Virus record (IMG/VR): IMGVR_UViG_3300017971_000191
Direction: 5' to 3' (one strand)
Source of the DNA: a virus
Taxonomy: Duplodnaviria > Heunggongvirae > Uroviricota > Caudoviricetes
Length of the DNA: 64,000 bases
In this document: in pieces, positions 26,322-53,624 of the stretch
Layout of the letters: each line of letters opens with the position of its first letter
Numbering within the stretch: position 1 is the first letter of the stretch
Notes under the pieces: model-generated
What the model was told of the DNA's origin: nothing
The model's database searches: none
The model's input: only the letters and a program-made list of their open reading frames with translations
Made by a program: the position numbers and the translations under genes

Positions 26322-29300
26322 CTACTGATCCAAAATCTGTACCTGGTCGTCCAGGGACAGCTTGCCGGCTGCGTAGGCCGCCCTGGCGTCGGCCAAAGTG
26401 TGAAACTTCCGCACCGATTGTTTGCTTCGTGACTTGGTGGCGTGGTAGAGACCGCCGACGAACTCCTGCCCGGGAGCATGCACCGGGGACTTGAAATCGG
26501 CCGGGCTGAGCAGGTTGGCCGAAGGCAGCATCCGCTCGTAGGCCTCCTTGACGGCCGCCGCGTCCGTGGGGACGTGGAAGTTCATCTGGTCGCCGTCGAA
26601 GTCGGCGTTGAACCCCTTGACAATCAGGGGGCTCACTTGCATCGTGCTCCCCTTCACCAGCTTGGGGCGGAAGGCGAGGATGCCAAACTTGTGCAGCACG
26701 GGGGCGCGGTTGATGAACACCGGCCGCTCGTCCATTTCCTCGACGAGCGTTTCCCGGGCCAGGGGGGTACGATCCTTGATCTGCTGGAGGGCCCGGGTCA
26801 GAGGAACCCCCTGTCGACGCATACGCCTGGCGATGAATTTTCCGTAAATATCGAAGGCCGCATCCTCGGGCAGGCCCACCGTGTCCATGTCGAAATCGGG
26901 GTTGGGGGTGATCACGGACCGGCCGACGTTGTCCACTGTCGTGGAGATCAGCTTACGCTGCACGGTGCCGAACTTGGGAGAGCTTCCAAAAACGCTTTTG
27001 AGGATTCCCCGCACGTTCTTCTCGCGGCTCTTCTGGCTGATCGGATCTCCCAGGCCGGTGACTGCCTTGAAGGCGTGGTAGACGGCCAGCCGCTCCGGGC
27101 CAGCACCCTCGTCCCCCAGCTCCTTCTTCATGGCCGCCAGGTTATCGTTGGCCTCCATCAGCTCCTTGTAGAGGTAGTTGGCGTCGGAGATCATCGGCAG
27201 GTCGTTGTCCATCATCGAGACCGGGCGGAACGCCGGCGGCAGCACCGGGGCCCGCTTCAACACCCAGTCGCCAGGATGGATACCGAGCTTCTTGGCCCGC
27301 TTGAGATAGTCGAGCTTGCGGACAGCTTGGTCCCTCTCCGTCTTGCTGCCTTGCGAGACTTGGGCCCTTGCCATGGACAACTCTTTGTCCAAGTTGAGGG
27401 CTTGCAAGGCTTTACCGATGGCCTGGGCGCCGGTGCCGAACTTGGGCAGCTCATGGTCCCCGGAGATGACGGCCTCGAACTTGGCCTTGGTCAGCCCGAG
27501 CACGCGACGGATCGGCTCCTCCATCACCGGATTGGGCATCGGCTCGGTCAGGCGGATCGCAGACCATCGCCGACCGGAGTGGCCGCCGGTGAGCTTCTTG
27601 TCGAACAGACCGCCCCGGATGGGACGCAGGCCCCGGCCCCAATCGACGCCGTCGTTCTTCATCAGGTTGCGATCCCCGGCCAGCTCGTCGACGTCCTTGT
27701 CGGTCAGCGCCATGATGTTCGTCTGCGTGCCCTCGCGGACGACGTTGATCCCCGAGGCCCGGAGTTGCTCGACGAATTTATGGTAGGCCATCGGCACCCG
27801 AGGCATCGGCGGGTTGTGCCCCATCATGAACTGGAGCCAGTAGTCCTCGTTCCGCTGACCACGAATGGCGCCCACGTCTTCCAGGTTGTGGACCGCTCCA
27901 TGGCTAAGCAGGGCGTTGGTGTCCAGCAGGGCGACTCGCTTGGAACCTTGCTTGCCGCCCTTGGCCGGGGCGTCCTCGGCCGTGTAGGCGCCGCCGCCTC
28001 GTCCCTGCTCCTTGGCTTCTGCTTGATGGTGGAGCTTCATGAAGAAGCGATTACCGGTAGGGATGCCGCGGATCTTGGAGTCGTTGCTAGGGTCGATGAT
28101 GTCCTCGGTGTCCGACAATCCGGCCTTGCGGAGCTGCTCGCGGGCCCAATCCACGTAATCGCGGCTGTCGTCCCAATCCTCGACCCGAATCGGCTTGCCC
28201 TGCTTGGCAGCCAACTTGCCCAACCACAGCTCGATCTTTTGCGACGGATTGGTCCGGCCGATAATCCCCAGCGGATTCAGCAGCACCTCGAAAGGCTTCC
28301 CGTCCTGCCCCTGCGGCATCTGCGCGTCGGGGATGATCGCGGAAATGACGCCCTTGTCTCCGTATCGTCCTGAGAGCTTGTCTCCCTTTTGCATGGGAGA
28401 CGTACTCTTGACGAGGACCACCGGCCCTTTCTTGCCGTCAACAACGTCGGTAACGATTCCGGGATCGTTATGATCCCAGACAATACTATGATCTGCATGG
28501 GACGCCTGCTTCCTCTTGTGGACCTTGTTGTGCGACAGCTCCCGCTGGCGTGCCGCCAAGATCAACGGATGCCCCTTCTCGACCTCGGTTCCCGGTTTGA
28601 CGACTCCGCGGTCGTCCAGCGTCTCCAGGATCTTGCGCTCGTATCGGGACGGAAACAGGCTGACATAGGTCTTCTTACCGATCTTCGTTCTGTCGTCGAC
28701 CTCCAGCTCATTCTGGTACATGTGCTCCGAGGCCAGCTTCTTGGCAAAACCCTCGGAGATCACGATGGCGTCTTCGTGGTTTTTCCCCTGCCAGGAGACG
28801 TAGGCCACCCGGGCGTTGCGGCCCAGGGCCGTGGCGCCGCGCTCGTCGGTGTAGTTCGAGCGGGCCAGCAAGGCACCAGGAGCAAACCTCTGGCCGGGCC
28901 GGACCAGGGGTGTCTGGTGCAGGTATGTCTTCCGGTTGAAAGGGAAATGGTGGTACAGCTCGATGCTGTCCTCGCTGCCGTCGTCGTAGCGGACCTTCAT
29001 GCCGTCGTCGTCGATACCCAGCACCCGGCCGCCGCGTTTGGCGTGAACCGCCCCCATCTGCTTGGCGTACTCCTCCTCGTAGCTTCGGCCGCCACGGGTC
29101 CCGGGCATCGCCGACTGGACCCAGGGGGACTCAGGCTCGACCAGGGGCAGCGCCTGGGTGAGCATCCGCGAGGCCATGGCCATCCGCTGCCCCTTGACGG
29201 CGCCCTTCATGGGGACCAGGTTGCCCAGCGGGGAGAAGGCGTCCTCGAAATTGGGCATCACCAGGTTGACGTCCCGCTTCTTGGCCCAGATCATCTTGCT

Positions 29301-30764
29301 GCCCTTCATGGCGATCACCCGCTTTCCGGGGCGGGCCAGCGCTCTGGGGAAGGTGATCACCGAGTCGGCAACATCCTGCGGAGAAAGCCACTTCAGCTTG
29401 CCGCTACGGGGGTCCTTGAACTGCGTGTAGATCCGGCCGTTCTTCCCCTTGCGGGCGTTGCGGGTCATGTAGACGTCCACGCCCACACGAAAGCTCTCCG
29501 GCGTGCGTAGCGGGTCCACGAACCCGAAGTGGCTGGGTTGCACGCTACGGGCCTCCGCGGGCACGGCATCTAGCGAGGGGATACCTCCTTCTCCGAGCCG
29601 GCTGATGGAGTATTGCTTGTCGAAGATCTCGGCGGGGTTGATTTCCTCCAGGGGCTGTCCGAGACCTGAGTGCAAGATTGCAGACTCGACCTGTGGCCGT
29701 AGGGCTGAAGAAGGCATGCCCGAGAGGTTACCCTTGCGGGCGGCCTTCCAGAGAAGCTGGCGGCGGAGCCGACCGTGGTCCTTGGCAATCCTCTCCGCCA
29801 GAAGATCCTCCGGGCCCAGGAAATGCTGGTACGCCAGAGAATCACGGTCATCCACATCAGCCTCGTCGCGAGAAATAGCAAGTAGCTTTCGAGTCGTGTC
29901 AAGGATGGCCTCCTTGCTCATGCGATCGTACGGTTTTCCCAGGGTACGCCCGGTGACCTCGGGGTCCAGCTCCATCGAGGTCCAACGATCGACGAGCTTC
30001 TGCGCCGTCGTCCGCTCCTCGTCCTCCTGGTCGGCGCGGGTCAGCACGTGTCCCGCGTACTTCTTGATGGCGGCACCTTCATCCTTCGGATAGTTGGCCG
30101 CATACAGGTCGTCGCCCCAGATCTCGCGAAGCTCCGCGGGAGTCGCTCCCATCGCTTTAAGAAGCGGCATGAGGGGGAGCTTGGCGTTGTGGAGCCGAAC
30201 GTAGAAAACGCCCTTCTCAGGATCAAGAAAGTAGCGATGAGACACCCCTTTTCCAGGAAGGATGTTCGCATGGGCTTCGATCTCTCCATTTTCACGGACA
30301 CGAGTGAAGACACCGCCCCGCAGCCGCTGCTGGTTGCGAAGCGTATTCTCGTTGCCCCTATGGACGAACGTCCCCCGGGGCGTCAGATGCGGGACCGTGG
30401 CCACGACCTGGCGACGGCGATCCAGCACGCCGCCGGTCTCGTTGTCGACGAGTTCCCAGGTACCACGCAATCGCCGGCCGAGAGTTCGGCCGCCGAGGAT
30501 GGCTTCCTTCTGTTGGCGCAGGGTGAAGGTGTCCGGGTCCTGCCAGTCCACCTTGCTGAGCCGCAGGGTGTGGGTCTGATTTGAGACCGGCTCGATCCCC
30601 TGGGCCGCTACCAGCACCTGATCATAGATGTTGCGGCGCGTGGCGTCAGTGTCTCCGAACTCCCGTGTCTCCTCGTCAGTGGGAGGTGGAGCGGCAACAG
30701 GTGCAGGTGCCCCCGACAGCAGATTGGACGGCGTCGGCGGCATCAGGTTCAGATCGAGCGGCAT
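26322..30764 (-). CDS. fused RNA polymerase subunit: a compact beta subunit joined to the N-terminal half of beta-prime
   Basis: Beta-subunit motifs: RGTFVHRGNENTLRNQQRLRGGVF and GDKLSGRYGDKGVISAIIPDAQMP...LLNPLG. Beta-prime motifs: VLPPAFRP and RAPVLHKFGILAFRP...NADFDGDQMNFHVP. Confidence 0.8.
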   Translation of the reverse strand: MPLDLNLMPPTPSNLLSGAPAPVAAPPPTDEETREFGDTDATRRNIYDQVLVAAQGIEPVSNQTHTLRLSKVDWQDPDTFTLRQQKEAILGGRTLGRRLRGTWELVDNETGGVLDRRRQVVATVPHLTPRGTFVHRGNENTLRNQQRLRGGVFTRVRENGEIEAHANILPGKGVSHRYFLDPEKGVFYVRLHNAKLPLMPLLKAMGATPAELREIWGDDLYAANYPKDEGAAIKKYAGHVLTRADQEDEERTTAQKLVDRWTSMELDPEVTGRTLGKPYDRMSKEAILDTTRKLLAISRDEADVDDRDSLAYQHFLGPEDLLAERIAKDHGRLRRQLLWKAARKGNLSGMPSSALRPQVESAILHSGLGQPLEEINPAEIFDKQYSISRLGEGGIPSLDAVPAEARSVQPSHFGFVDPLRTPESFRVGVDVYMTRNARKGKNGRIYTQFKDPRSGKLKWLSPQDVADSVITFPRALARPGKRVIAMKGSKMIWAKKRDVNLVMPNFEDAFSPLGNLVPMKGAVKGQRMAMASRMLTQALPLVEPESPWVQSAMPGTRGGRSYEEEYAKQMGAVHAKRGGRVLGIDDDGMKVRYDDGSEDSIELYHHFPFNRKTYLHQTPLVRPGQRFAPGALLARSNYTDERGATALGRNARVAYVSWQGKNHEDAIVISEGFAKKLASEHMYQNELEVDDRTKIGKKTYVSLFPSRYERKILETLDDRGVVKPGTEVEKGHPLILAARQRELSHNKVHKRKQASHADHSIVWDHNDPGIVTDVVDGKKGPVVLVKSTSPMQKGDKLSGRYGDKGVISAIIPDAQMPQGQDGKPFEVLLNPLGIIGRTNPSQKIELWLGKLAAKQGKPIRVEDWDDSRDYVDWAREQLRKAGLSDTEDIIDPSNDSKIRGIPTGNRFFMKLHHQAEAKEQGRGGGAYTAEDAPAKGGKQGSKRVALLDTNALLSHGAVHNLEDVGAIRGQRNEDYWLQFMMGHNPPMPRVPMAYHKFVEQLRASGINVVREGTQTNIMALTDKDVDELAGDRNLMKNDGVDWGRGLRPIRGGLFDKKLTGGHSGRRWSAIRLTEPMPNPVMEEPIRRVLGLTKAKFEAVISGDHELPKFGTGAQAIGKALQALNLDKELSMARAQVSQGSKTERDQAVRKLDYLKRAKKLGIHPGDWVLKRAPVLPPAFRPVSMMDNDLPMISDANYLYKELMEANDNLAAMKKELGDEGAGPERLAVYHAFKAVTGLGDPISQKSREKNVRGILKSVFGSSPKFGTVQRKLISTTVDNVGRSVITPNPDFDMDTVGLPEDAAFDIYGKFIARRMRRQGVPLTRALQQIKDRTPLARETLVEEMDERPVFINRAPVLHKFGILAFRPKLVKGSTMQVSPLIVKGFNADFDGDQMNFHVPTDAAAVKEAYERMLPSANLLSPADFKSPVHAPGQEFVGGLYHATKSRSKQSVRKFHTLADARAAYAAGKLSLDDQVQILDQ
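26986..27004. repeat. degenerate copy of the palindromic motif (CCAAAAACGCTTTTGAGGA), in the CDS and translated ILKSVFG
   Basis: Imperfect match; weak. Confidence 0.25.
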
Positions 30765-30775
30765 GCTGTCTCACC

Positions 30776-31618
30776 TCAAGCGGCCTCTTCTTCGACGTCC
30801 ACCGGTACCGGGACGGCGTGGATTTCCGCAGGCTGCGTGGCGTACGCCCGACGACGGCGGCGTTCAAGAGCCTTCTTGAGGACGTTCTTCCGCTGTCGCT
30901 TGCGCGCTGCGCTGTAGGCAAACCAGCCGGCCATCAAGCTGGCCGGCACGGCGTAGTACCCGTAGGTTCCCAGAGTGGCCCCTGCCGTGTCCGGGTTGAA
31001 GAGCGCTTGCTTCTCCATGCAGAGATCGTAGAGGGCGTCCAGGTCGGCAGCCAGCTTCTCCATCGGCTCGTCGCTGCTGATCTTGACCGGCTCGTCGTAC
31101 TGGCCCACCAGGGCCCCACGGAAGCGCTCCCGCTCCCGTTCCACCTGGGAGTCGACCTCTTCCTTGCGGCGCTTGTCGAGGATCTTGTCGACCAGGTGCC
31201 AGCCGAGACCTCCAGCCGCCAGTCCGCCGACCATCGCCGCCGGCTGGTACCAGGGGATGCCGATCGGCGTGGTGGCTTTGTTGCCCTTGAAGAAGTCGCC
31301 AAGCCAGCCAGCGGCCTTCGCCAGCTCGGGCTCTTCCTCCTCGTCTTCCTTGGCGGGGACGGGCAGCGGCAGAGGTGAGACGGCCGGGTAAGTCGGCTTT
31401 CGCGTGCGGACGTTTCGCCGGACAAGGTTGAGCAGCCCGTAGATACCGCGGGCTCCCGCACCGGCTCCGGCCGAGATGACGGCGATGCGGCCCAGGTCCT
31501 TCAACGCCTGGGTCTTGAGGTTCCGGGTGGCCGCTTCCTGAAGGACGGCGACCGGGTCCGTGGCCTCCTTTTCCTGGCGCACCTCGTCAATGATGCGCTG
31601 GGATACTTTGCTGTCCAT
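30776..31618 (-). CDS. hypothetical protein
   Basis: 280-aa ORF. Confidence 0.45.
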   Translation of the reverse strand: MDSKVSQRIIDEVRQEKEATDPVAVLQEAATRNLKTQALKDLGRIAVISAGAGAGARGIYGLLNLVRRNVRTRKPTYPAVSPLPLPVPAKEDEEEEPELAKAAGWLGDFFKGNKATTPIGIPWYQPAAMVGGLAAGGLGWHLVDKILDKRRKEEVDSQVERERERFRGALVGQYDEPVKISSDEPMEKLAADLDALYDLCMEKQALFNPDTAGATLGTYGYYAVPASLMAGWFAYSAARKRQRKNVLKKALERRRRRAYATQPAEIHAVPVPVDVEEEAA

Positions 31619-32000
31619 AGCTGATTGTCCCTCCTGGACCTATCGCAGCCTGTGCGGGCTGACCGTCTTCGAGGAAGTATTCCGCCCACTCGATGTAGAC
31701 GACATGCTGCCCCCGCTTCTTCGACCTCCAACGCTCGACGAAGAGCAACTGTGCCCAGTTGTTGAGGATCTTGTCGAGCACGTCGAGGTAAGCCTTGTTC
31801 TCCTCCTTGATCCACGTACGAAACGTACCATTCTGCGGATCGGCCACCCGGACGACCCGCGAGTCGAACTCCGCCTCCGTGAAGAACGGGGGGCTGGCGC
31901 CGCGGAAAGGCAGACCGTCGACGTCGGCCCGACCCCAGTACAGCTTTCCGCGCCCATTCCCTTCCGTCCTCGCTGCAAACTTAACCAGGCTGTTTGCCAT
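31587..32000 (-). CDS. hypothetical protein
   Basis: 137-aa ORF. Confidence 0.45.
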   Translation of the reverse strand: MANSLVKFAARTEGNGRGKLYWGRADVDGLPFRGASPPFFTEAEFDSRVVRVADPQNGTFRTWIKEENKAYLDVLDKILNNWAQLLFVERWRSKKRGQHVVYIEWAEYFLEDGQPAQAAIGPGGTISYGQQSIPAHH

Positions 32001-32009
32001 AAGTTCACG

Positions 32010-32420
32010 CTACAGGAACACTCGTCCTGTTTGCTTGCGACGAGCCCGGTACTCCCGCATGGCTCGCTGCCTCAGCAAACGTGCCGTTTGGCGTCGGTAC
32101 TCGTCGGCGACCTCCTGTTTCTTTACTTCCTCGGGGTCCTGGTCATCGACATCCGTGGCTTTGGCCAGGCCGTAGCCGGCGACTCCGCCGAGGATTGGCG
32201 GGGCCGCGATGGCGAGAGGCAACCCGTAGCTCAGCAACGGTGCGGCGACCGCCTTGCCGGCTTCCAGGGCCTTGACGGGGATACTGGTGATGTCCCCGAC
32301 GATCCCGCCCATCTTGTCCATGGCTTCCTTGACGCGCTCGTGGGCCTCTTCGAGAGTCAGACCCTCTTCCACGCAACGGCTGAGGAAACCAACCTTGAAC
32401 GCATCTCGTGAGCTGAGCAT
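32010..32420 (-). CDS. hypothetical protein
   Basis: ATG (MLSSRDAFKV) chosen; the upstream Arg-rich extension is rejected. Confidence 0.4.
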   Translation of the reverse strand: MLSSRDAFKVGFLSRCVEEGLTLEEAHERVKEAMDKMGGIVGDITSIPVKALEAGKAVAAPLLSYGLPLAIAAPPILGGVAGYGLAKATDVDDQDPEEVKKQEVADEYRRQTARLLRQRAMREYRARRKQTGRVFL

Positions 32421-32430
32421 CCTTGCCTCG

Positions 32431-32817
32431 CTACAACTGGTATTGGGAGCCGGAGCCGGGCATGACCACCGTCTTCTTACGCCGGCGGAGCCTGTCCTTG
32501 ACGGCATCCTTGTCGGTGGGCATCCCCTGTTCCCGTGCCTTCTGGGCCAGGGCGACTCCCTCCTCGATAAACTTCTGCTGCCGATCGACGTCGATGCCGA
32601 TCTGCTTGCCGACCTGACGATCGCCCCTGATCATCTGGTTGATGGCGTTGAGCCGCTCCAGAAACTCGCGGACCGACAGCGACTCGTACTCTCCAGTGTC
32701 CCGGTCTTCGTGGTGGACCAGGCCGTTCTCGGCCCAGTACCGGTCGCGTTTCTGATTGTCGCGGGGCCCAAAGTAGATGACCTTGTGCTGGCCGCCGAGC
32801 AAGGGGACCTTCGCCAT
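32431..32817 (-). CDS. hypothetical protein
   Basis: 128-aa ORF. Confidence 0.45.
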   Translation of the reverse strand: MAKVPLLGGQHKVIYFGPRDNQKRDRYWAENGLVHHEDRDTGEYESLSVREFLERLNAINQMIRGDRQVGKQIGIDVDRQQKFIEEGVALAQKAREQGMPTDKDAVKDRLRRRKKTVVMPGSGSQYQL

Positions 32818-32835
32818 CCCTGGCTCCTTCCATGG

Positions 32836-33300
32836 TTAGAACTGGTAGATGAAGAAATTCCCTTTCTTCGCTTGGTGGGGAATCGGAAGCCGGTGCATAT
32901 AGCTGATGACCTTCACCCCGCGACATCGTTGGAGTTTTGGGGTGAGTTCACGCACCAGCGGCATCGGCAGGTACATATAGTAGACCGTGGCCGGCAGCTT
33001 CTCGAAGTCCACCTCGCGGAGATCCTTGCGATAGACCGCGACGAGGCTACCCAGTTTGTTGAACCTGACGTTCTCCTGAGCGTGCCGGACCTTATCGACG
33101 TCGTAGTCGATTCCGACTGCCTTGCACCCGTACCGCTTGGCTGCAAACACGCACAGCCGGCCGTCCCCGCAACCCAGGTCGTAGAAGACGTCCTTCTCGT
33201 CCAGGTCCGCCAGGGCGAGCGCCGTGTAGCACTCATTCACCGGCGTCGGGGCATCGGGTTGTGCGCCGAGTACGGCACAGAGGACAAGGGCCAGGTACAT
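32836..33300 (-). CDS. secreted class I SAM-dependent methyltransferase (signal peptide MYLALVLCAVLGAQP)
   Basis: LGCGDGRL is a glycine-rich AdoMet motif I. The start overlaps the upstream stop as ATGA. Confidence 0.5.
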   Translation of the reverse strand: MYLALVLCAVLGAQPDAPTPVNECYTALALADLDEKDVFYDLGCGDGRLCVFAAKRYGCKAVGIDYDVDKVRHAQENVRFNKLGSLVAVYRKDLREVDFEKLPATVYYMYLPMPLVRELTPKLQRCRGVKVISYMHRLPIPHQAKKGNFFIYQF

Positions 33301-34157
33301 CAGTAGCAACCTCCTCCGTAACACATGGCGCAGGCCGCGTTGCCGCAACCGCCGCCGGACATCATCATCCCGCCGCCGTAGTAGCCGCCGTAGGATTGAG
33401 ACGGCATCGCGTAGCTCTGACTCGGATACGACGACTGCAACGGCATCCCGCCATAGTAGGTGCCGCCGGATGCGACGGCACTGGATTGCGGGCACATCCC
33501 CGTGCCCTGATACGGGCAGGAGGCACAGTTGCCGTCGCACTGGATGCCGGAGCCGTTGCCCAAGCGGTAGGACCCGTCCGCCGTCACGTACATCGGCGTA
33601 GTCGAGTAGGCCAGGCCGCTTGCCTTCAGCGCAGTCTGCTTTACCCCGAGTTTCACGGCGATCCACCTGAACTGGGACTGCTCCATATTACCGCAGCCCG
33701 TCCAGCGACAGATCTCGTTCCCCTCGGAGTGCAAGATGAGGGTGGGGACCAATTCGATCTTCCAGTCCCTGGCCAGCTCGGCATGCGCGGGGTTAGCCGT
33801 GTTGCCGAACTGGACATCGTAGCCTTCGGCCGCAAGCCGTTTCAGCATGGGCTTGACTTTTTCGCAAGGCGGGCAACCCTCACCGCACCACAGCAACATC
33901 GTAGGCGGCGAATCTGCGGCCTCGATCTTGGCGAAAATCGTGTCCCAGCTTGTTTTGGCACGCTGCTCGGTAGTCCTGGTCTGTTCCTGGACGATTTGAG
34001 CGCTCCTCTGCGGCGAGAAGAGGCCCCAGTTGTCGCTGGCCATCGCCAGCATGGAGGGGACCTCAGCTCGGCTTGCCGGACTGATGAGGAACCCCAAGAG
34101 CAGAATCGTAGAAACTACCGTAGCGATACATAGACCGACATTCTTTGGAGAGGACAT
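33300..34157 (-). CDS. secreted thioredoxin-like protein (WCGEGCPPC) with a C-terminal Gly/Tyr/Cys/Met-rich tail
   Basis: N-terminal signal/transmembrane segment, CxxC active-site motif, and a tail ending GGGCGNAACAMCYGGGCY. Confidence 0.5.
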   Translation of the reverse strand: MSSPKNVGLCIATVVSTILLLGFLISPASRAEVPSMLAMASDNWGLFSPQRSAQIVQEQTRTTEQRAKTSWDTIFAKIEAADSPPTMLLWCGEGCPPCEKVKPMLKRLAAEGYDVQFGNTANPAHAELARDWKIELVPTLILHSEGNEICRWTGCGNMEQSQFRWIAVKLGVKQTALKASGLAYSTTPMYVTADGSYRLGNGSGIQCDGNCASCPYQGTGMCPQSSAVASGGTYYGGMPLQSSYPSQSYAMPSQSYGGYYGGGMMMSGGGCGNAACAMCYGGGCY

Positions 34158-34755
34158 GGCGAACCTCCTTTTCCGTGATCAGCACATCCTGCGCATACCA
34201 GCGCCGATGAGCCTCGTGGGCGTCCCAGGTACTACATGCTGGGATCTTTCGGTGCCACTCAATATACAGCGCATCACGGGCCTGGAGGAAGTCCGAAACG
34301 TCCGGTGGGCCGAGGAGCCCCGGGGCCCCACGACGGAGGGCCGCTTCCCTGTCGGCTAAAAGAAAGAACTCATAATCCTCGTCGGCCAGCCGCTGACGAA
34401 GATCCCGGTTGATCCGGACCCTCTGGAGGATCAGACTCGGCGTGATCGCCATGACGGCTCGGAGGTAGCGGAGACAGTCGTGGATCTCCTTCCGCATGGC
34501 GGGCTCGTAGAGCCAGATTTTCTCGCCCTGCTTGACCGGAGGGAGAAGGAGGATCTCGAAGGCAATCCCACAGGCCTCCCGGGCCATCAGCTCCTCCTCG
34601 GTCGGGGCCAGCACGTCCGCCAGGGAGATGCGCTCAAACGACCGGGGCGGCGCGGCGACGGAGCTTTCCGATTTTTCGGTTGCGGCTCGCAAGGCTGTTG
34701 CAGGCCATGCTAACAGGGAGAGAATCCCTGCCTTCAAGCAGTCTCGTCGCTTCAT
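34063..34755 (-). CDS. Tat-signal (MKRRDCLKAGILSLLAWPATALRA) exported hypothetical protein
   Basis: Twin-arginine motif followed by a hydrophobic segment and an AxA cleavage-like site. Confidence 0.45.
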   Translation of the reverse strand: MKRRDCLKAGILSLLAWPATALRAATEKSESSVAAPPRSFERISLADVLAPTEEELMAREACGIAFEILLLPPVKQGEKIWLYEPAMRKEIHDCLRYLRAVMAITPSLILQRVRINRDLRQRLADEDYEFFLLADREAALRRGAPGLLGPPDVSDFLQARDALYIEWHRKIPACSTWDAHEAHRRWYAQDVLITEKEVRHVLSKECRSMYRYGSFYDSALGVPHQSGKPS

Positions 34756-35335
34756 TCTTCTGCTCCTCGTCGACAATGAACTCGATACGGTTGCCATCCA
34801 CAGCGGTCACGACGGCGGAAAAGTCCCCGACCGACGCGCCGAAGTCGATACCGGCGCTGAAATTGATCTTGTCGCCCGGTTTCACGCCGCCCGCCAGCAA
34901 GGGCTCCGACGTGATGATCGGCGGCAGGATGGTCGACTTGCTCACGTAGACCTTGTTCGGGTGGGCCACCTGGTCCAGCTCGTCGTTGGAGATGGGAACT
35001 GGCGGGAGAATCCGGCGGAAGAAACCATCTTCTCGCATTTTTACCCTCGTGAAGTCGTTGACGGCATCCATGGCCTCCTTTTCCATCACAGGATCGCGAG
35101 AGCAGAGCTTCTCGAAGATCGCCTCGTTGAGGAGCTGCGTGTCGCTCGGCGACATCGTCACCGGTTTCTTCTCGGGCAACCACAGCGCAGGAGGTACCGC
35201 CACGGAGACGCCGATCGCTCCGATGGCCTTGAGGAAGCCCCGCCGCTGCATCAGGAACAGCTCCTGCTCGCTGTCGGAGAGCTTCTCGCGGCCGAAGCCG
35301 AAGAACTGCTTGATAAGACCCCAGTTGACGTTCAT
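34634..35335 (-). CDS. Tat-signal exported chimeric protein whose N-terminal region duplicates residues ~11-66 of the capsid-like protein 6070..7011
   Basis: The signal RRGFLKAIGAIGVSVA is followed by LLNEAIFEKLCSRDPVMEKEAMDAVNDFTRVKMREDGFFRRILPP, about 87% identical to the 6070..7011 region. Shared 20-27-nt DNA identities show a recent duplication. Confidence 0.55.
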   Translation of the reverse strand: MNVNWGLIKQFFGFGREKLSDSEQELFLMQRRGFLKAIGAIGVSVAVPPALWLPEKKPVTMSPSDTQLLNEAIFEKLCSRDPVMEKEAMDAVNDFTRVKMREDGFFRRILPPVPISNDELDQVAHPNKVYVSKSTILPPIITSEPLLAGGVKPGDKINFSAGIDFGASVGDFSAVVTAVDGNRIEFIVDEEQKNEATRLLEGRDSLPVSMACNSLASRNRKIGKLRRRAAPVV

Positions 35336-35417
35336 TGATCCTGCCTCTGCGCCCGGGGGGCGCCGGGTTGCTGCTGGACCCGACGCCCCCTTCCGAGAAC
35401 CGCCGCCGCAAATGTCG

Positions 35418-35858
35418 CTAGTCGTCCTCAGGCATCTTGCAGAGCATCAGGATCTGCCCGTCGTCGATGTTCGGCTGGGGAACAGGCACCGGCAGCGGAC
35501 CGAACTCTCCCAGCTTGTCGAGGATGTCCACCAGGGCGTCGACGGCACCGCGGGCGATCTCCATGATGACCGTCTTGAGGCCGCGATCGACGACCGGCTC
35601 CAGCCAGTTGGGCACCGGCTTGAGGTCGATCGGCGTGATCACGTCGTCGATGAGGGTCTCCACGGCGGCGAGGATCGCTTCCTTCCGCTCGGCGGCCGAG
35701 TAGCCGCTGATCTGGGCCACCAGGTCGATGCACTTCTTGACGAACAGCATCACCAGGGCCACGACCTCGCTGAACGTCAGCTTCTGATCGGCGTAGGCCT
35801 CTTTGTAGGCCGCCACCATCGCCGCAACCGCCTCGTTGATCCGGTCGTACAGACTCAT
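35418..35858 (-). CDS. hypothetical protein
   Basis: ATG (MSLYDRINEA). Confidence 0.45.
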   Translation of the reverse strand: MSLYDRINEAVAAMVAAYKEAYADQKLTFSEVVALVMLFVKKCIDLVAQISGYSAAERKEAILAAVETLIDDVITPIDLKPVPNWLEPVVDRGLKTVIMEIARGAVDALVDILDKLGEFGPLPVPVPQPNIDDGQILMLCKMPEDD

Positions 35859-35885
35859 GGTGCAGAACTCCTTCTGCAAAAGGTG

Positions 35886-37085
35886 TCAGCGGAACAGGCG
35901 AGGCACCACCGCATTGATGACGCCGAGGATCGCGCCGCTCCGTTTGAGAGTATTCTGCGTTCCAGCGGGCATCCCCGTCAATAGACCTAGCGCTTTTCCA
36001 ACGGCCCAGCCGGCCGCATAGCCCTGGACGCCCCCGCCGGCCGCCCCCATCATCGTCCCCAGGAGCCCCGTCTGGTGCGGCGTGACCTGCCCAGGCTGCG
36101 AGTTGGAGTCGGGCATCTGCTGGGCCGCGTAGAGGGCTCCCATCGTCGTAGCGGCCGTCTGCGGGCTCGCTCCGACCTCCCAGAGGGTCTGGCCCATCTT
36201 GTTCGTGTTGACCGTCAGAGGACCAGGGGGGATGCGGGTGTAGGAGGGACGAGAGAAGGTGCCCAGGGAGGCGAACTTCTCGGTCGCCTGGGTGTAACGC
36301 TGGCCCAGCTCCACGCCGGCCAGGACGTCGCAGGCCTCCTTCAGCGGCTCGTACTCCCCGATGCCGTAGTCCGCCGGAGTGTAGTCCTCGCTGGCCATGA
36401 TCCGTCGCCACAGGGGAGCGGGCTTGTCGGCCCAGGTGGGGACGGGGATTGCCGGCGTCTCGTTGACGGGCTTGTCCCCGGGCTTGCCGGCCAGGTCGGA
36501 GCCATCCGTGAGGGAGCGACCCCTGGAGAGAGCCGAAAGGGTCCACATGGCCCCGGGCGTGCTGCCTGTCAGGCCGCCGATGAGGGCCAGGGTGCGGCGG
36601 AGTCGACCACGCCGCCAGCTCGACGGCAACAGCTTCTCGCCCAGCCAGCCGGCTCCATAACCGAGGCCAGCGCCGACCAGGCCGCCTGTCAGGGTGGCCG
36701 CCAACGGACTCGGGGCGTTCGGGATTCCGCCGGGGTACTTACCAGGGAAGAAGTTGAGCAGCTCGCCGGCGCGTCGCAGCGTGGGCGAGTAGGCAACCTT
36801 CACGAAGTGCCCAGACGATACCTCCGGGAACGTCAACGGCTCGGGCAGAACCTGGTCAGCGCCGACCGCTCGGGTTAGGGCTGCCGTGCACAGTGCAAGG
36901 TCCTGGGCCGTGGCTTCCCTGCCATGCAGCCCACCGATCTCTTTGTCCGGGTTCCAATAGTACCCCACGTCCCCGCGGGTGAACACTCGCGACGTCCCCC
37001 GGCGGATGGCCTCGGCCGGGGAAGCAATCTTCAGGAGCCACTCGTCAACGACGTCAGGCACTTCGTCCCAGAACACCGCTACCAT
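35886..37085 (-). CDS. hypothetical Gly-rich protein
   Basis: 399-aa ORF. Confidence 0.45.
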   Translation of the reverse strand: MVAVFWDEVPDVVDEWLLKIASPAEAIRRGTSRVFTRGDVGYYWNPDKEIGGLHGREATAQDLALCTAALTRAVGADQVLPEPLTFPEVSSGHFVKVAYSPTLRRAGELLNFFPGKYPGGIPNAPSPLAATLTGGLVGAGLGYGAGWLGEKLLPSSWRRGRLRRTLALIGGLTGSTPGAMWTLSALSRGRSLTDGSDLAGKPGDKPVNETPAIPVPTWADKPAPLWRRIMASEDYTPADYGIGEYEPLKEACDVLAGVELGQRYTQATEKFASLGTFSRPSYTRIPPGPLTVNTNKMGQTLWEVGASPQTAATTMGALYAAQQMPDSNSQPGQVTPHQTGLLGTMMGAAGGGVQGYAAGWAVGKALGLLTGMPAGTQNTLKRSGAILGVINAVVPRLFR

Positions 37086-37422: not shown

Positions 37423-38046
37423 TCACGCCGCCCGCCGGTACAATCGACGCTTGCGGACTGCCTCGTAACGGCCACTCGGCTCGACCAGGAGACGGACGAT
37501 TTGGGCCACGTGGGCCGTTTTGAGCTGCTCCCGGGTGTACCACTCCGCCATGGCCGGAAATCTGCGGGGTCCCATTGTGGGCGACTTGGAGAGCCTCCAA
37601 TGATAGTCGTCCAGCTCCAGATAGCTCCCCTTCCGCATCAGGAGGTCGACCAGGAAGAAGGCCAGCCCGTCCACGTCGTAGGTGTGGGCGCCGTCGAGGA
37701 AGACGTAGTCGAATACCGGCGGCTCCGGCTCCTCCAGCAACCGCAGCAGCGACCAGTTGTAGGAGTCTTTCAGCCGGCGAGAGTTCCCGTGGAAATGCCA
37801 GCGATGCTTGTCCTCCAGGCCTGCCCGCTGAACCCTCTCCTTGGCCCGATCGAGCATGTCCTCGAAATCGAACAGGTGGAAGTCGCCACCCGGTTCCATC
37901 GCTTCAGCGACGGCACAAGCCGAACTACCGTAGAGCACCCCGAGTTCTGCGTAGGTGCGGATCTCGGGGTGCTCCCGGACAATCTTCGGGCCGCAGATTC
38001 GCGGGTTGCGAGCATCCCGCGGCGGCTTGAAGGACTGCTCGTCCAT
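37423..38046 (-). CDS. class I SAM-dependent O-methyltransferase (macrocin-O-methyltransferase / CmcI-like fold)
   Basis: The motif FDYVFLDGAHTYDVDG is typical of this family. Confidence 0.5.
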   Translation of the reverse strand: MDEQSFKPPRDARNPRICGPKIVREHPEIRTYAELGVLYGSSACAVAEAMEPGGDFHLFDFEDMLDRAKERVQRAGLEDKHRWHFHGNSRRLKDSYNWSLLRLLEEPEPPVFDYVFLDGAHTYDVDGLAFFLVDLLMRKGSYLELDDYHWRLSKSPTMGPRRFPAMAEWYTREQLKTAHVAQIVRLLVEPSGRYEAVRKRRLYRRAA

Positions 38047-38049
38047 CGG

Positions 38050-40380
38050 CTAAACTTCGCATGCGCCTCCAACGCAAGCACACTGCTGCGCCAGGTCGGT
38101 GTAATCCGAATCCTCGTAGCGGATCAGTTTCCACCACTCGATCTCGGGCATCGCCTTGGCCCGCCGCTCGTACTCGTCCTCGTCGATGGTCTCGTACGGG
38201 GCCAGCGGGTAGATGCCGCCGTCAAACGGCTGGAAGGCCAACCCACCGACGATGTCCCAATTCCCGTAGACCCAGTTGCCGACCTCGAACCACTCGTGGT
38301 CCTTGACGTAGATCGTCACGCTGGGATTATGCTCACACCAGTGGAGCTTGTACTTCTTCCAGTGCTCAAGCTGCTCGATGGCCGTCATCTGGCCCAGCAG
38401 CAACGCCCCTTCCGGCGCCCGGCAGGGGAACTCCAGCACCAGCAGCCCGGCATTGTCGTAGTCGACGTGGCAGGGCACACCCTGGGCGGCGAGCATCTTG
38501 GCCACGGGGTTCGTGTTGTTGGCCCGCACGCGACGGATGTAGAACTGGCCGTGCCAGGCCTTGAAGCCGGGGGCACAGTCGAAGAACACGCTGCTGTCCC
38601 CGGAGGGCTTGCCACAGGTCACGGCGACCGACTCGTTGACACCCAGCCGCTGGGCCCAGGTGCGGTTCGTGTCGATGGCATGCTGCTTCAACTCAGAGAG
38701 CCGCTGAGCCAGATCCGTGGCTCCGGGACGGAGCATCGAATGGTCCAGGTGGCCGAGCATGTCCACGCCCAGCAAGGCCTCTTCCTCGCAGTTCTTCTTC
38801 CACAGCGGATCGACGTAGGAGAAGTCCGTCATCGACGACTGGATGGTGCCCCAAAGGGTGGCCAGCTCGACGCGGCGGAAGATCTCCCGTTCGGAGATGT
38901 CGCCGCGGACGACGGCGATGGAGAGGTTGCAGAACTGCTTGTGACGAAGGTTGATCTCGCCGCAGGGGTTGGTGCCGAAGATCTGACCCTTCATGCTGCG
39001 GCGCTTGGGAAACTGCTTCCTGAGCGCGCCCCGGTTGAAAATGCCTCGCTCCCCGGAACCGCTCTTGGCCAGGGACATCCACTCCTCCATGAACGTCAGG
39101 GCGTCGGGACGCTCGTCGTACACGGCGGAGTTGTTGGCCTGGTTCCGCTGCGGGTTGTGGTTCCAGAACTCCCCGGCCTTGCAGTCGCGCATCAGGTCGT
39201 CGTCCAGGTCGGAGAGGCTGATCCCCGAGGCCCGGCGGACGCCGCCCATCTGCACGATACGGTGGGCGTAGCAGTTGATGTCGTGCAGGTCCAGCGACGA
39301 GAGCCGCTTGCCTTGCACCGAGAGGATGCGGCTGCGGGCGAAAGTCAGCAGGTCCCTTAACGGCTGAGGGCCGCTGGCGCGGCCTCCCTTGGTCTTGAGG
39401 ATCGAGCCTTCGGGCCTGATCTGCGAGAAGTCGTAGACCACGTCGTGGCCGGACAGCCAGTGCTCCAGACCCGTCTTGTAGGCATCGCACCAGCCTTCGG
39501 TCGTATCGGGGATCGCGAACCTCGTCGGCTGGCCCCGCTTCTGCTTACGAACCCGGGGCCAGCGATCCGTAGCGTGAGCCGACTCGACGGAGAAACCCAC
39601 GCCACAACCCTGCATCAGCAGGTAGAGTTCCTCGGCCATGTCCTGCGGATTCTGCAAGAACTGGAACGAGCAGTTGAACACGCCGGTCTGGCAACGCTCC
39701 AGCGCCGGTCCGGCCATCTGCACCAAGCGCATCGCCGGCGAGGCTTCCTGCTTCAACAGGGCGTCCCGCAAGTCGAGCCAGGTGCTGTCGTCGACGGCGT
39801 CCGGTCCGCACCGTCGATGAACATGGTTACGGCTGTAGCAGAGCACCCGGTCGACCGACTCGGGCCACGTCTCCCTCCGCCCCTTCTCCCAATCGAAGCG
39901 GGCGAACTTGTCGAAGGCCTGGAAGACACGAACAGCCTGGTTGGGTCCAGTGAAGTGGGAACACCCCTCCTGGAACGCTTCTTGAATCTTGGGGTCCACG
40001 GGTCGCTCCTCCCTGAGCCGACGATGTTCCTCACGGTAGAGAATGTACTCCTTCGCTTCCTGGTGGTGACCCCTCGCCATGAGCTGCTGCTCGACGAGGT
40101 CCTGGATTGCTTCGACCGTGACGCTCCCGTCCTGGAAGAGCAGGAGCTGTTCCACCTGCTCGGCGACACGATCGGCTTCGTGGTCGGTGTGATCGTTCTG
40201 CGGCCAGTTGCAGGAATTGACCAAACACCGGTAGATCGCCCTGAAGACCTTGTGGCGATCGTAACCCACGACAGACCCATCACGCTTGGTGACGGTTGAG
40301 GGATGGTGCCCGTTGCCTCGGGCGAGAGAGCGGCGCCCATGAGGGACGCGCGCAGACGACGCAGCAACAGCATGTTGCAT
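38050..40380 (-). CDS. ribonucleotide reductase catalytic subunit, probably class II (B12-dependent, monomeric) with an N-terminal ATP-cone
   Basis: NPCGEI active-site motif; an ATP-cone-like VTKRDGSVVGYDRHKVFRAI; no nrdB-like neighbour. The true start is probably an alternative codon downstream of 40380. Confidence 0.6.
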   Translation of the reverse strand: MQHAVAASSARVPHGRRSLARGNGHHPSTVTKRDGSVVGYDRHKVFRAIYRCLVNSCNWPQNDHTDHEADRVAEQVEQLLLFQDGSVTVEAIQDLVEQQLMARGHHQEAKEYILYREEHRRLREERPVDPKIQEAFQEGCSHFTGPNQAVRVFQAFDKFARFDWEKGRRETWPESVDRVLCYSRNHVHRRCGPDAVDDSTWLDLRDALLKQEASPAMRLVQMAGPALERCQTGVFNCSFQFLQNPQDMAEELYLLMQGCGVGFSVESAHATDRWPRVRKQKRGQPTRFAIPDTTEGWCDAYKTGLEHWLSGHDVVYDFSQIRPEGSILKTKGGRASGPQPLRDLLTFARSRILSVQGKRLSSLDLHDINCYAHRIVQMGGVRRASGISLSDLDDDLMRDCKAGEFWNHNPQRNQANNSAVYDERPDALTFMEEWMSLAKSGSGERGIFNRGALRKQFPKRRSMKGQIFGTNPCGEINLRHKQFCNLSIAVVRGDISEREIFRRVELATLWGTIQSSMTDFSYVDPLWKKNCEEEALLGVDMLGHLDHSMLRPGATDLAQRLSELKQHAIDTNRTWAQRLGVNESVAVTCGKPSGDSSVFFDCAPGFKAWHGQFYIRRVRANNTNPVAKMLAAQGVPCHVDYDNAGLLVLEFPCRAPEGALLLGQMTAIEQLEHWKKYKLHWCEHNPSVTIYVKDHEWFEVGNWVYGNWDIVGGLAFQPFDGGIYPLAPYETIDEDEYERRAKAMPEIEWWKLIRYEDSDYTDLAQQCACVGGACEV

Positions 40381-42656: not shown

Positions 42657-44138
42657 TCACGCCGCCGCTGCCTCCAACTCTTCGACCACGGTCGGAGCCG
42701 AATCCGCCAGGCGACCGGCGGCGTTCACGCCGCGATCGTCCCAGTAGACGTCGGCCAACACCTTGTCGGAAGCATCGTCCGGTTGGTCGGGGTTGTGGTT
42801 GACGAAGTCATACGGGATCTCGTTCTCCTTGAGCCACTTCTTCACCATCCCCGTGTCGCCGCGGACGGTGAAGACGATGACCCGGGCACCGATGCTCTTG
42901 AACTTCGTCAGCCACTTCTTGGCGCCGGGGCGAGGAGGGCCGATCGACTTGGGATCGAAAGGCTCCTCTTTCACCGCAATCGTGCCGTCCAGGTCGACGG
43001 CCACGGTGGGAATGTGTTCGTCGTCGGCCGCGAGCTTCTGGAGAACCTCAAAAGCGGTTTTGAGGAGTTCCTCGTCCGGCGTCTCTGCCGCCTGCCGCTC
43101 CTTCTCCGCCGCGTCGTCCTCCCCCGCCCGCCGCAGCACTTCACTGACCTCGTCGTCGGAGAGGACCTGGCGGATCTTCATGCCGCCGCCGATAAGCCAC
43201 TCACCGCCCTGCATCCTCGGGGCCTTCTTCCGGTAGTGCCCACCCTCCGGCACCTGGTCGCGGACATCGCCGGTCGGGCTCGCATCGGCGACTGCTTGCC
43301 AGTCGACATCGTCGGGCAGCTCGACCTCGGCCCATACCCGGCCGGGCTGAATCCGATCCCGCTTCGACCGCAGATGCGGAGCGGACGGCAGCGCTCCCGC
43401 GTGCCAGCCGGGCCTCGGGGCAAAGCCCTCGGTGGGGATGTTCTCCGCCTCGACCCACTCCTCCCGGGGCACCGGGTTCGTCTTGTCGATGAACAGCGGG
43501 AACAGCTCCCCGGGCCGCGTCGGTAGGGTGCGGAAGAGCTTGTAGGCCTGGACCGTGTCTTCCGCCGCCTTGGCGAAGGCGCCGTCCTCGATGGCCTTTT
43601 TGGTGTTGCCGTACTCCAGCCACCACTTGAGCTGGGGCACGGTTAGCGGGAAGATGCTCCCCAGGCCCTTCCAGCCACGCTCGTAGTTGGCCAGGTAGAC
43701 CTTGCGAGCCTGGGCCTCGGTAGTTGTCCCCAGGACCACCTTGTGCTCGTCGAACTTGCCGCTGCCGGGGTCGACCTGGTTGACGACGAAGACCAGCTCA
43801 CTGTGGCGATCGGGGCCGAGAAAGACGTCCACCTGGTCGCCGTCCTTGCCCTCGCTACGGGAGAAGTACCCGTAGTCGTGCTGCATCTCGATCTCCCAGC
43901 CGTCGCCGGATCGGATGGAGCCCTTGGGGTTCTCGATGACGATGGTGAGCCCCTGCCAGGAATACTTCCCCTTGCGGTAGTTGCCGGCCTCGGCTTGGGC
44001 CTCAGAGGGATTGGTGTCAGTCGCCTGCCTGGCCTCGGTTAGGGTGGCCGCCAGCTTGGTAAGCCCGGCAAACTCTCCCCCCAGCTCCGCCAGAGTCAGG
44101 CCCTTCGGGAGCAACAAATCGGCGACTTTCTCGTTCAT
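42657..44138 (-). CDS. two-domain protein with a C-terminal HAD-superfamily phosphatase domain (VDLDGT motif)
   Basis: ATG (MNEKVADLL) chosen because csrA occupies the opposite strand over the track's N-terminal extension. The DxDGT motif plus downstream Lys and Asp fit HAD motifs I-III. It contains an in-frame palindromic 20-mer. Confidence 0.5.
   Translation of the reverse strand: MNEKVADLLLPKGLTLAELGGEFAGLTKLAATLTEARQATDTNPSEAQAEAGNYRKGKYSWQGLTIVIENPKGSIRSGDGWEIEMQHDYGYFSRSEGKDGDQVDVFLGPDRHSELVFVVNQVDPGSGKFDEHKVVLGTTTEAQARKVYLANYERGWKGLGSIFPLTVPQLKWWLEYGNTKKAIEDGAFAKAAEDTVQAYKLFRTLPTRPGELFPLFIDKTNPVPREEWVEAENIPTEGFAPRPGWHAGALPSAPHLRSKRDRIQPGRVWAEVELPDDVDWQAVADASPTGDVRDQVPEGGHYRKKAPRMQGGEWLIGGGMKIRQVLSDDEVSEVLRRAGEDDAAEKERQAAETPDEELLKTAFEVLQKLAADDEHIPTVAVDLDGTIAVKEEPFDPKSIGPPRPGAKKWLTKFKSIGARVIVFTVRGDTGMVKKWLKENEIPYDFVNHNPDQPDDASDKVLADVYWDDRGVNAAGRLADSAPTVVEELEAAAA
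43047..43066. repeat. palindromic motif CTCAAAAGCGGTTTTGAGGAGT, copy 3, inside the CDS and translated LLKTAFEV
   Basis: The exact 22-mer is shared with the copy at 17386. Confidence 0.6.
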
Positions 44139-44228
44139 TTTCCACCCTTGACGATGTCCCCCATGAGGGATATACTTCTTAGATCGGATGCGGTCGTGAC
44201 CGGAGGCTACTGTAGGAAGGAGTCCATG

Positions 44229-44408
44229 ATGTTGGTTCTTTCGAGGAAGAAGAACGAGAGCATCGTTATCAACGACGACATCACCGTGGTCGTTGTTGAG
44301 ATCCGAGGCGACAAAGTACGCCTTGGCATCGAGGCACCAAAGGAGGTGCCTGTCCACCGACGTGAGGTCTTCGATGCGATCAAGCGCAACGAAGACGTGA
44401 CTACCTAG
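44229..44408 (+). CDS. csrA: carbon storage regulator CsrA/RsmA homolog
   Basis: MLVLSRKKNESIVINDDITVVVVEIRGDKVRLGIEAPKEVPVHRREVF aligns along its length with canonical CsrA ([48 protein letters not shown]). An AAGGAG ribosome-binding site precedes the ATG. It is the only convincing plus-strand gene. Confidence 0.8.
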   Translation: MLVLSRKKNESIVINDDITVVVVEIRGDKVRLGIEAPKEVPVHRREVFDAIKRNEDVTT

Positions 44409-53486: not shown

Positions 53487-53549
53487 TACCGTCCGAGTGG
53501 AAGCGGGAAAGTGACCGGCTCTCCCCGATACCACCATTGCACGAATAGG

Positions 53550-53624
53550 GGCCGGCGGAGGGAATCGAACCCCCAACCTTCTCCGCCCGTAGGCTGAGAC
53601 GCTCTGTCACTGAGCTACGCCGGC
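53550..53624 (-). tRNA. tRNA-like element with a non-canonical anticodon arm (possible pseudo-tRNA, attachment-site core, or unusual tRNA)
   Basis: Reverse complement reads GCCGGCG-TA-GCTC-AGTGACA-GAGC-G-[TCTCAGCCTACGGGCGGAGA]-AGGTT-GGGGG-TTCGATT-CCCTC-CGCCGGC-C. The acceptor stem, D-arm and T-arm (GGTTCGATTCC) are canonical. The anticodon arm is 20 nt instead of 17. Confidence 0.4.

Follow-up and report, generated by a model that had tools for sequence, protein, structure and literature searches.

A probably exported thioredoxin-fold protein with a cysteine-rich C-terminal tail is encoded by a subclade of uncultivated jumbo phages

The virus record IMGVR_UViG_3300017971_000191 (Caudoviricetes), of which a stretch of 64,000 nucleotides was analysed (here called the window), encodes a thioredoxin-fold protein of 285 amino acids with an unusual architecture. 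A hydrophobic leader is followed by the thioredoxin fold, a disordered low-complexity stretch of 110 residues and a terminal cysteine cluster, CGNAACAMCYGGGCY. The reading favoured here, with moderate confidence, is that of an accessory thiol:disulfide oxidoreductase of a jumbo phage, which is exported to the host envelope and carries a flexible cysteine-tail arm, and to which the methyltransferase encoded directly downstream is a separate addition. In a literature search, descriptions of an exported phage thioredoxin or of a cysteine-rich thioredoxin tail were not found. The gene and its parts are as follows.

33300..34157, minus strand: thioredoxin gene, an open reading frame (ORF) of 285 amino acids
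34164..34170, minus strand: Shine-Dalgarno sequence AAGGAGG, read from the sequence, 6 nt upstream of the long start ATG 34157
34065..34157, minus strand: leader, residues 1-31, with the n-region MSSPKN, the hydrophobic core VGLCIATVVSTILLLGFLI and the c-region SPASRA, followed by E
33951..34064, minus strand: spacer, residues 32-69, with a WGLF motif; a long helix (residues 49-80) begins here
33633..33950, minus strand: thioredoxin fold, residues ~70-175, beta-alpha-beta-alpha-beta-beta-alpha
33864..33875, minus strand: CXXC motif of the active site, C95-P-P-C98 (tgc ccg cct tgc), where helix 96-110 begins
33303..33632, minus strand: disordered low-complexity extension, residues 176-285 (G 22%, S 14%, Y 12%, M 7%, C 7%)
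33303..33347, minus strand: terminal Gly-rich cysteine cluster CGNAACAMCYGGGCY, residues 271-285, C-x4-C-x2-C-x4-C

The original prediction had described such an ORF with a Cys-rich low-complexity tail, and this description holds: the protein contains 14 cysteines (residues 10, 91, 95, 98, 150, 155, 207, 211, 214, 222, 271, 276, 279 and 284), and the last 50 residues consist of 28% Gly, 14% Ser, 14% Tyr, 12% Met and 8% Cys. The identical protein is present on four independent public contigs. Furthermore, the GC content at third codon positions (GC3) in the frame of the tail is 0.82-0.85, like that of the thioredoxin domain, with 0.47-0.63 in the other frames. Together, these two observations indicate that the tail is translated and does not represent an out-of-frame artefact.

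The thioredoxin assignment is supported at the level of sequence and of predicted structure. Pfam PF00085 (Thioredoxin) matches residues 82-157 with 31.8 bits, above its gathering score of 23.5, and the best PHROG is phrog_22, a thioredoxin domain of the nucleotide-metabolism category. The AlphaFold2 (AF2) model, built from an alignment of 67 sequences, reaches a predicted local distance difference test (pLDDT) score of 92-97 across residues ~70-175, and the top 50 Foldseek matches in the PDB are thioredoxins or thioredoxin-like proteins (TM-score normalised to the target, 0.6-0.77). A phmmer search against the PDB sequences also leads to thioredoxins, with an identity to any solved thioredoxin of ~25% at most. 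In the 13-member family alignment C95, P97, C98 and P138 are invariant; C95-P-P-C98 aligns to the WCGPC motif and V137-P138-T139, the cis-Pro loop, to the IPT of solved thioredoxins. The WCGEGCPPC motif that had first drawn attention to the gene does therefore belong to a thioredoxin active site within a genuine thioredoxin fold, but the catalytic pair is C95 and C98, whereas C91, the cysteine of the "WC", is an extra one found in the window protein only.

With the canonical thioredoxins (TrxA, PHROG 22) the protein shares the fold, the CXXC motif at the N-terminus of helix 1, the cis-Pro loop (VPT) and PF00085. In contrast to them, it adds a hydrophobic leader, a spacer of 40 residues and a disordered Cys-rich tail of 110 residues, and has CPPC instead of CGPC. 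The equivalog model of TrxA, NCBIfam TIGR01068, is not reached (29.1 bits against a cut-off of 96.8). Among the exported oxidoreductases, which act outside the cytoplasm, the CXXC thioredoxin fold is shared with TlpA/ResA/CcmG-DsbE, with Bacteroides TrxP (3hxs, which is among the Foldseek matches) and with TrbB of the F-plasmid, and the putative signal peptide of the window protein would be a further common feature. None of these carries a Gly-rich cysteine tail, and the window protein has no match to the Redoxin or AhpC-TSA families of Pfam; TIGR00385, the DsbE model, gives 11.7 bits against 123 and TrbB TIGR02738 12.2 bits against 132. A DsbA type is not indicated either, since the AF2 model displays only the minimal fold at residues 86-169 without a helical insertion, and no DSBA family of Pfam matched. 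TrbB is a precedent for a mobile element that carries its own periplasmic disulfide isomerase.

An HMMER search of 1.84 billion representative proteins retrieved the thioredoxin itself and 230 distant matches, all of which cover residues ~74-175 only; many of these distant relatives are signal-peptide thioredoxins. A word-indexed homology search returned the protein itself only, the 13-member alignment yielded nothing more of use, and in IMG/VR neither the thioredoxin scan nor the methyltransferase scan gave a match. Several of the better matches are syntenic orthologs in related phages (P-numbers denote homologous proteins and L-numbers the loci encoding them):

P0005: locus L002
P0023: loci L004/L005 and a 233-kb contig
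P0033: locus L046
P0041: locus L047
P0099: loci L048/L049

The conserved order is (ribonucleotide reductase)-g399-g153-(g233-like)-thioredoxin-g128-g165-g137-g280-RNA polymerase, in which the following genes make up the interval between reductase and polymerase:

30776..37085, minus strand: block of g399, g153, g128, g165, g137 and g280, of no known function, present in the whole phage group (L006, L010, L011, L134-L159)

The thioredoxin occupies the slot between g153 and g128 in six phages, namely the one of the window, L002/L132/L133, the 233-kb ENA contig with L004/5, L046, L047 and L048/49. In ten remoter relatives, found by the polymerase in IMG/VR and by a g137 profile in metagenomes, the slot contains no thioredoxin (L006, L010, L011, L134, L146, L147, L151, L153, L156 and L158). 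Since the block is retained without it, the thioredoxin is an accessory gene of one subclade, located in a variable slot. In some relatives nothing is inserted before g128, in one subclade this position is taken by the thioredoxin, and in L010 it contains ~4.7 kb of other genes.

Export of the protein depends on the choice of the start codon, as the signal-type N-terminus of the original prediction is present only if translation begins at ATG 34157. From this start, inspection reveals the features of a signal peptide, with K5, a core of 19 residues and A-S-R-A before E; residues 3-31 contain the most hydrophobic 19-residue segment of the neighbourhood (mean Kyte-Doolittle value 2.59), and AF2 places a helix at residues 7-24. 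A hydrophobic N-terminal leader is found in all five syntenic orthologs. In L002 and L047 it lies in non-overlapping sequence, and in L046 the likely true start, MKSMLLTILAVFCITSPTLAA followed by GEW, is situated within an overlap of ~100 nt with the upstream gene. The spacer behind the leader (AF2 pLDDT 53-68) has a recurring motif as well, which reads NWGLF in the window, EWGLF in P0033 and GYGLF in P0005. The mature protein has 13 cysteines, which is counted in favour of export. The Shine-Dalgarno sequence, the hydrophobicity, the leaders of the orthologs and the overlap in L046 thus favour the long start, and the thioredoxin is likely to be exported via this leader. Very hydrophobic leaders suit the co-translational export by the signal recognition particle of fast-folding proteins such as thioredoxin. 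On the export of such proteins, PMC9594773 may be compared.

Several observations weigh against an exported oxidoreductase. The public gene call comprises 250 amino acids from the alternative start M36 (34052) and lacks the leader. The long start requires an overlap of 95 nt on the same strand with the upstream ORF g244 (34063..34797), and within this overlap GC3 is 0.53-0.57 in all frames and favours none, although a low GC3 in every frame is as expected for dual coding. The sequence AAGGAGG is frequent within coding sequence: of its 28 sites on the coding strand, eight precede the start of an ORF with 60 amino acids or more, and the other 20 do not. Some of the ortholog leaders, several in number, have no basic n-region, and a phage-encoded DsbB- or DsbD-like partner was not seen. 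Finally, a class II ribonucleotide reductase, the C-terminal cysteine tail of which needs a thioredoxin-type reductant, is encoded 3.9 kb upstream of the gene.

38050..40380, minus strand: class II ribonucleotide reductase (ATP-cone)

These points lead to a different explanation, in which the protein is a cytoplasmic thioredoxin that starts at M36 and serves the ribonucleotide reductase, the hydrophobic N-terminus being an artefact of ORF extension. Phage thioredoxins and glutaredoxins commonly recycle the C-terminal cysteines of ribonucleotide reductase. The conserved block around the thioredoxin also includes the reductase, whose sequence terminates in QQCACVGGACEV, with CACVGGACEV as its last letters, and phrog_22 falls in the category of nucleotide metabolism. 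The M36 start, located 10 nt past the upstream stop, is preceded by GAGG at a distance of 8 nt. However, this is a partial site compared with the perfect Shine-Dalgarno sequence before the long start, and the leaders occur in all syntenic orthologs, even where they overlap no other gene. A Cys-rich protein with a disordered cysteine tail is atypical of cytoplasmic thioredoxins, TIGR01068 is missed by a wide distance, and ten relatives retain the reductase block without any thioredoxin. A cytoplasmic role is therefore considered unlikely. The short public call would be explained by the fact that gene callers limit overlaps on the same strand, which trims the leader.

Regarding the reductase itself, its cysteine tail is of the kind reduced by thioredoxins, and it heads the block that runs from the reductase via g399 to the RNA polymerase in relatives including L133, L146 and L147. 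In two phages the leader of the thioredoxin lies inside the 3' end of the upstream gene (34063..34157 in the window, about 1900..2004 in L046), with overlaps of ~95-100 nt; a leader encoded in this way explains why public calls trim or mis-start it. A frameshift in g244 that would abolish the overlap was considered due to a high GC3 in the thioredoxin frame at 34291-34410, and was rejected: this frame encodes Arg/Ser-rich junk and has a stop at 34179-34181.

The second extra feature of the protein is the tail. AF2 gives a pLDDT below 50 for most of residues 181-285, and no tandem DNA repeat underlies the tail. The exhaustive HMMER search of the 1.84 billion representative proteins revealed no homologs of it. 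Nevertheless, comparable clusters, CAGGGCAGGSCGGG, CGPGGCPGGRCGR, CGPGGCPDGNCPR and CPGGQCKNGQCPVN, end four of the syntenic orthologs. The C-termini read as follows.

Window thioredoxin: ...CGNAACAMCYGGGCY
P0033: ...GGGCAGGGCAGGSCGGG
P0041: ...CGPGGCPGGRCGR
P0099: ...CGPGGCPDGNCPR
P0023: ...CPGGQCKNGQCPVN

Each terminal cluster is preceded by a low-complexity linker rich in Pro, Gln, Tyr, Ser and Gly, and a Gly-rich C-x4-C-x4-C terminus is present in five of the six syntenic proteins, window included. P0005 differs: its CNC lies 22 residues before the C-terminus, and a Gly-rich cysteine cluster directly follows its leader. At least three cysteines within the last 20 residues were found in 5 of 149 distant matches, and four of these five are the syntenic orthologs. 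In contrast, only the window protein has the cluster C207/C211/C214/C222, the CDGNCASC...MC stretch, the Met run and C91. The tail is conserved as a motif and not as a sequence. The conservation in relatives that had been raised as a question is thus found for the Gly-rich cysteine cluster, in four of the five orthologs, but not for the sequence around it. A back-translated CGPGGCPGG pattern had also been traced in IMG/VR; both of its two matches are junk frames in high-GC DNA.

C-terminal cysteine tails with a shuttle function offer a parallel. The C-termini of ribonucleotide reductase, of Erv2 (CGC) and of mammalian thioredoxin reductase (GCUG) are likewise disordered, contain glycine and present close cysteines. 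This is an analogy without homology, and the tail of the window protein is much longer and is attached to a thioredoxin, not to a flavoenzyme or reductase. By this analogy, it is probably a redox-relay or docking arm.

A tail of this composition could also bind metal. Sco-type thioredoxin folds bind copper, and the protein might be an exported thioredoxin-fold metallochaperone whose Cys/Met tail, possibly together with C91, C95 and C98, binds Cu(I), Zn or an Fe-S cluster. The MMM run, the four terminal cysteines and the C91-x3-C95 arrangement beside the CXXC motif would fit to this, as would the recurrence of terminal cysteine clusters in the orthologs; there is further a weak likeness to PF12669, the FeoB-associated Cys-rich proteins (13.4 bits, short of the cut-off of 27). 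However, none of the orthologs has the Met run, C91 or the C207-C222 cluster, no family model for metal-binding tails matched, the AF2 model displays no ordered site, and genes for metal transport or metal enzymes are not present nearby. A metallochaperone is for these reasons regarded as distinctly unlikely.

The likeness of the tail to precursors of ribosomally synthesized and post-translationally modified peptides (RiPPs) or to metallochaperones, which the original prediction had proposed, received no support from the family searches. The tail alone gave no match at E <= 10 in NCBIfam and only noise below the thresholds in Pfam, with PF12669 as noted, and maturase domains (including radical-SAM) are absent from the neighbouring genes. 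Cys-rich RiPP precursors (SCIFF/ranthipeptides) and FeoB-associated Cys-rich proteins have similar short Cys/Gly-rich stretches, but no model of these matched, no maturase is encoded nearby, and the peptide of the window is fused to an enzyme domain.

This question is closely connected to the methyltransferase gene downstream, as the thioredoxin had been viewed together with it as a possible extracytoplasmic redox or modification pair. The relevant features are:

32836..33300, minus strand: class I S-adenosylmethionine (SAM) methyltransferase, aKMT/Dot1-like, 154 amino acids (Pfam Methyltransf_25/31, PrmA, DOT1)
33310..33317, minus strand: Shine-Dalgarno sequence of the methyltransferase, GGAGGAGG, within the last codons of the tail
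33298..33302, minus strand: stop/start junction TGATG, with one shared base (33300)

The junction is TGATG with an overlap of 1 nt, and not ATGA as had been stated. This overlap and the internal Shine-Dalgarno sequence imply a co-translation of thioredoxin and methyltransferase.

The methyltransferase is predicted with an AF2 pLDDT of 93 as a compact class I fold, its SAM motif DLGCGDG is invariant, and the best Foldseek matches are Sulfolobus aKMT (5fad) and a Salinibacter protein (5bxy), both with a TM-score of 0.81. The best NCBIfam model, NF041081 (archaeal protein-lysine N-methyltransferase), gives 65.3 bits and does not reach the equivalog cut-off of 200. According to the model, the protein has an aKMT-like protein-lysine methyltransferase fold. 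With the archaeal aKMT/Dot1-like enzymes it shares the compact class I fold of ~150 amino acids and DLGCGDG. In contrast to the cytoplasmic archaeal aKMT, it has a hydrophobic leader of ~14 residues (MYLALVLCAVLGAQ), which is followed by a conserved PDAPTP motif; such a leader of ~12-14 residues stands before PDAPTP in all five close homologs, P0156-P0160. The bacterial relatives, in the 80 best genome loci (L052-L131), belong mostly to Planctomycetota, Verrucomicrobiota, Acidobacteriota and Myxococcota. In 70 of these 80 loci, a crude screen by hydropathy picked up a hydrophobic stretch at the N-terminus, ahead of the catalytic core or of PDV(I/V)(F/Y)VPTP; many of the 70 read as a classical signal peptide, and some very long N-termini among them are due to ORF over-extension. 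In L114 an aKMT-like methyltransferase carries a twin-arginine leader. Based on the conserved hydrophobic leader and on the signal peptides of bacterial relatives, the earlier description of the methyltransferase as secreted is reasonable for the family. A description of an exported aKMT-like methyltransferase was not found in a literature search. A PADLOC match to "mad2" (47.6 bits) was rejected as evidence of a defence system, as it covers the generic methyltransferase core only.

The proposal of a dedicated extracytoplasmic modification system, in which the tail is a RiPP-like precursor or a substrate of the adjacent secreted methyltransferase, draws on the implied co-translation, on the hydrophobic leaders of both proteins and on a Cys/Gly-rich composition that superficially resembles some RiPP cores. 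Gene order speaks clearly against it. The five further phages that carry a syntenic thioredoxin lack the methyltransferase, and it was not found in 28 metagenome loci of the group either. In L050, P0156, the closest homolog whose context is readable, is surrounded by unrelated small ORFs, and no thioredoxin was found nearby by tblastn with the window genes or among the recorded Pfam families of the neighbours. As the methyltransferase is missing from the thioredoxin-bearing relatives, the pairing is specific to the window. Furthermore, its fold is that of a lysine N-methyltransferase, yet residues 179-285 of the thioredoxin contain no lysine, and neither a match to a RiPP precursor model nor a maturase was found. 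The proposal is already largely refuted by synteny and has become highly improbable. As judged from gene order, the methyltransferase is an unrelated, later-acquired insertion and does not form a conserved functional pair with the thioredoxin. Taken as a whole, the earlier observation is confirmed with the small corrections given above, and its interpretation is partly supported.

Upstream of the thioredoxin, two further genes attract attention.

34634..35335, minus strand: g233, with a twin-arginine leader, QRRGFLKAIGAIGVSVAV (NCBIfam TAT_signal_seq TIGR01409, 17.6 against a cut-off of 16.7)
34063..34797, minus strand: g244, a window-specific ORF between g233 and the thioredoxin, with the N-terminus KRRDCLKAGILSLLAWPATALRA, which is twin-arginine-like by eye

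By tblastn, the N-terminal half of g233 also occurs in L046 and L048, immediately before the thioredoxin. This half comprises the RR motif as well as REDGFFR(R/K)ILPPVPIS, a stretch of strong conservation; RRxFLK is kept in L046, where it reads RRRFLQ. The 3' end of g244 overlaps the thioredoxin leader and its N-terminus overlaps the end of g233 by 164 nt; the public call of g244 is shorter (174 amino acids). A homolog of g244 was seen in none of the examined loci, and no family matched. Between g153 and g128, the window thus carries four consecutive genes with export-type leaders, g233, g244 (by eye), the thioredoxin and the methyltransferase.

The phage itself is known from uncultivated sequence only. 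The window is part of a jumbo phage genome, the contigs of which reach 236 kb; its GC content is ~63%, and almost every gene is located on one strand. Apart from the reductase, the following genes frame the region.

37423..38046, minus strand: Methyltransf_24 protein of 207 amino acids, immediately downstream of the ribonucleotide reductase
26322..30764, minus strand: fused RNA polymerase beta and beta' N-terminal protein of 1480 amino acids (Rpb2_6, Rpb1_1, Rpb1_2)
19108..23148, minus strand: second polymerase protein of 1346 amino acids (Rpb1_5)

Since g399 directly follows the reductase in L133, L146 and L147, the Methyltransf_24 gene, too, looks inserted in the window. The fused polymerase gene is kept in about a dozen IMG/VR contigs and in many metagenome loci. 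By the polymerase, the nearest isolate is Salmonella phage Arash with 31% identity; a description of this phage was not found in the literature search. The majority of the remaining genes around the thioredoxin have no family match. Around the thioredoxin and methyltransferase genes there are no promoter-like sites, and terminator-like sites are no commoner than in shuffled sequence; this suggests that the genes are transcribed together as part of a long operon. The phage probably infects a host from Planctomycetota or a related phylum, a hint given by the closest cellular relatives of the methyltransferase, which are mostly Planctomycetota and Verrucomicrobiota.

Elsewhere in the window, ARAGORN reports a tRNA-like gene at 53548..53624 (minus strand), the anticodon of which cannot be assigned ("tRNA-???"). 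At 42657..44588 (minus strand) a protein of 643 amino acids combines an InPase (inorganic pyrophosphatase) domain with a C-terminal part that resembles phosphoheptose isomerase. In PHROGs this InPase domain is found inside very large virion, DarB-like and endolysin-annotated proteins.

For the exported oxidoreductase, the following sequence of events can be envisaged. Translation would begin at ATG 34157, and the very hydrophobic leader would direct the protein into Sec export, probably co-translationally, after which it may be cleaved behind ASRA or be retained as a membrane anchor. The CPPC thioredoxin domain would then swap disulfides with proteins of the envelope, for which the phage's own exported or membrane proteins encoded nearby and envelope proteins of the host are the candidate substrates. 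Here, the disordered Gly/Ser/Tyr linker of ~110 residues with its Gly-rich cysteine cluster would most likely serve as a flexible arm, which may shuttle disulfides or electrons in and out of the active site or, through a mixed disulfide, may keep the enzyme attached to a partner. The methyltransferase, separately acquired within the same operon, would be translationally coupled but not a dedicated partner.

A bolder version of this can be formulated, which has only a small chance of being correct. The tail could be a built-in relay arm that allows the exported thioredoxin to act alone in the envelope, either via DsbD or DsbB of the host or by reducing the cross-links of a Cys-rich, proteinaceous envelope of the Planctomycetota type, and would thereby aid lysis, entry or superinfection exclusion. 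If this is true, g233, g244, the thioredoxin and the methyltransferase would represent a phage island that remodels the envelope, including protein methylation outside the cytoplasm.

Phage thioredoxins are usually read as cytoplasmic helpers of nucleotide synthesis, whereas the thioredoxin of this jumbo-phage subclade looks exported. For annotation, the gene illustrates how limits on same-strand overlaps can trim a leader from a public call. The common occurrence of aKMT-like methyltransferases with signal peptides in Planctomycetota, Verrucomicrobiota and Acidobacteriota further raises the question how a SAM-dependent enzyme would work outside the cytoplasm. If the export of the thioredoxin is true, these phages would manipulate the disulfide chemistry of the host envelope, and the tail would be a compact example of a tethered cysteine relay.

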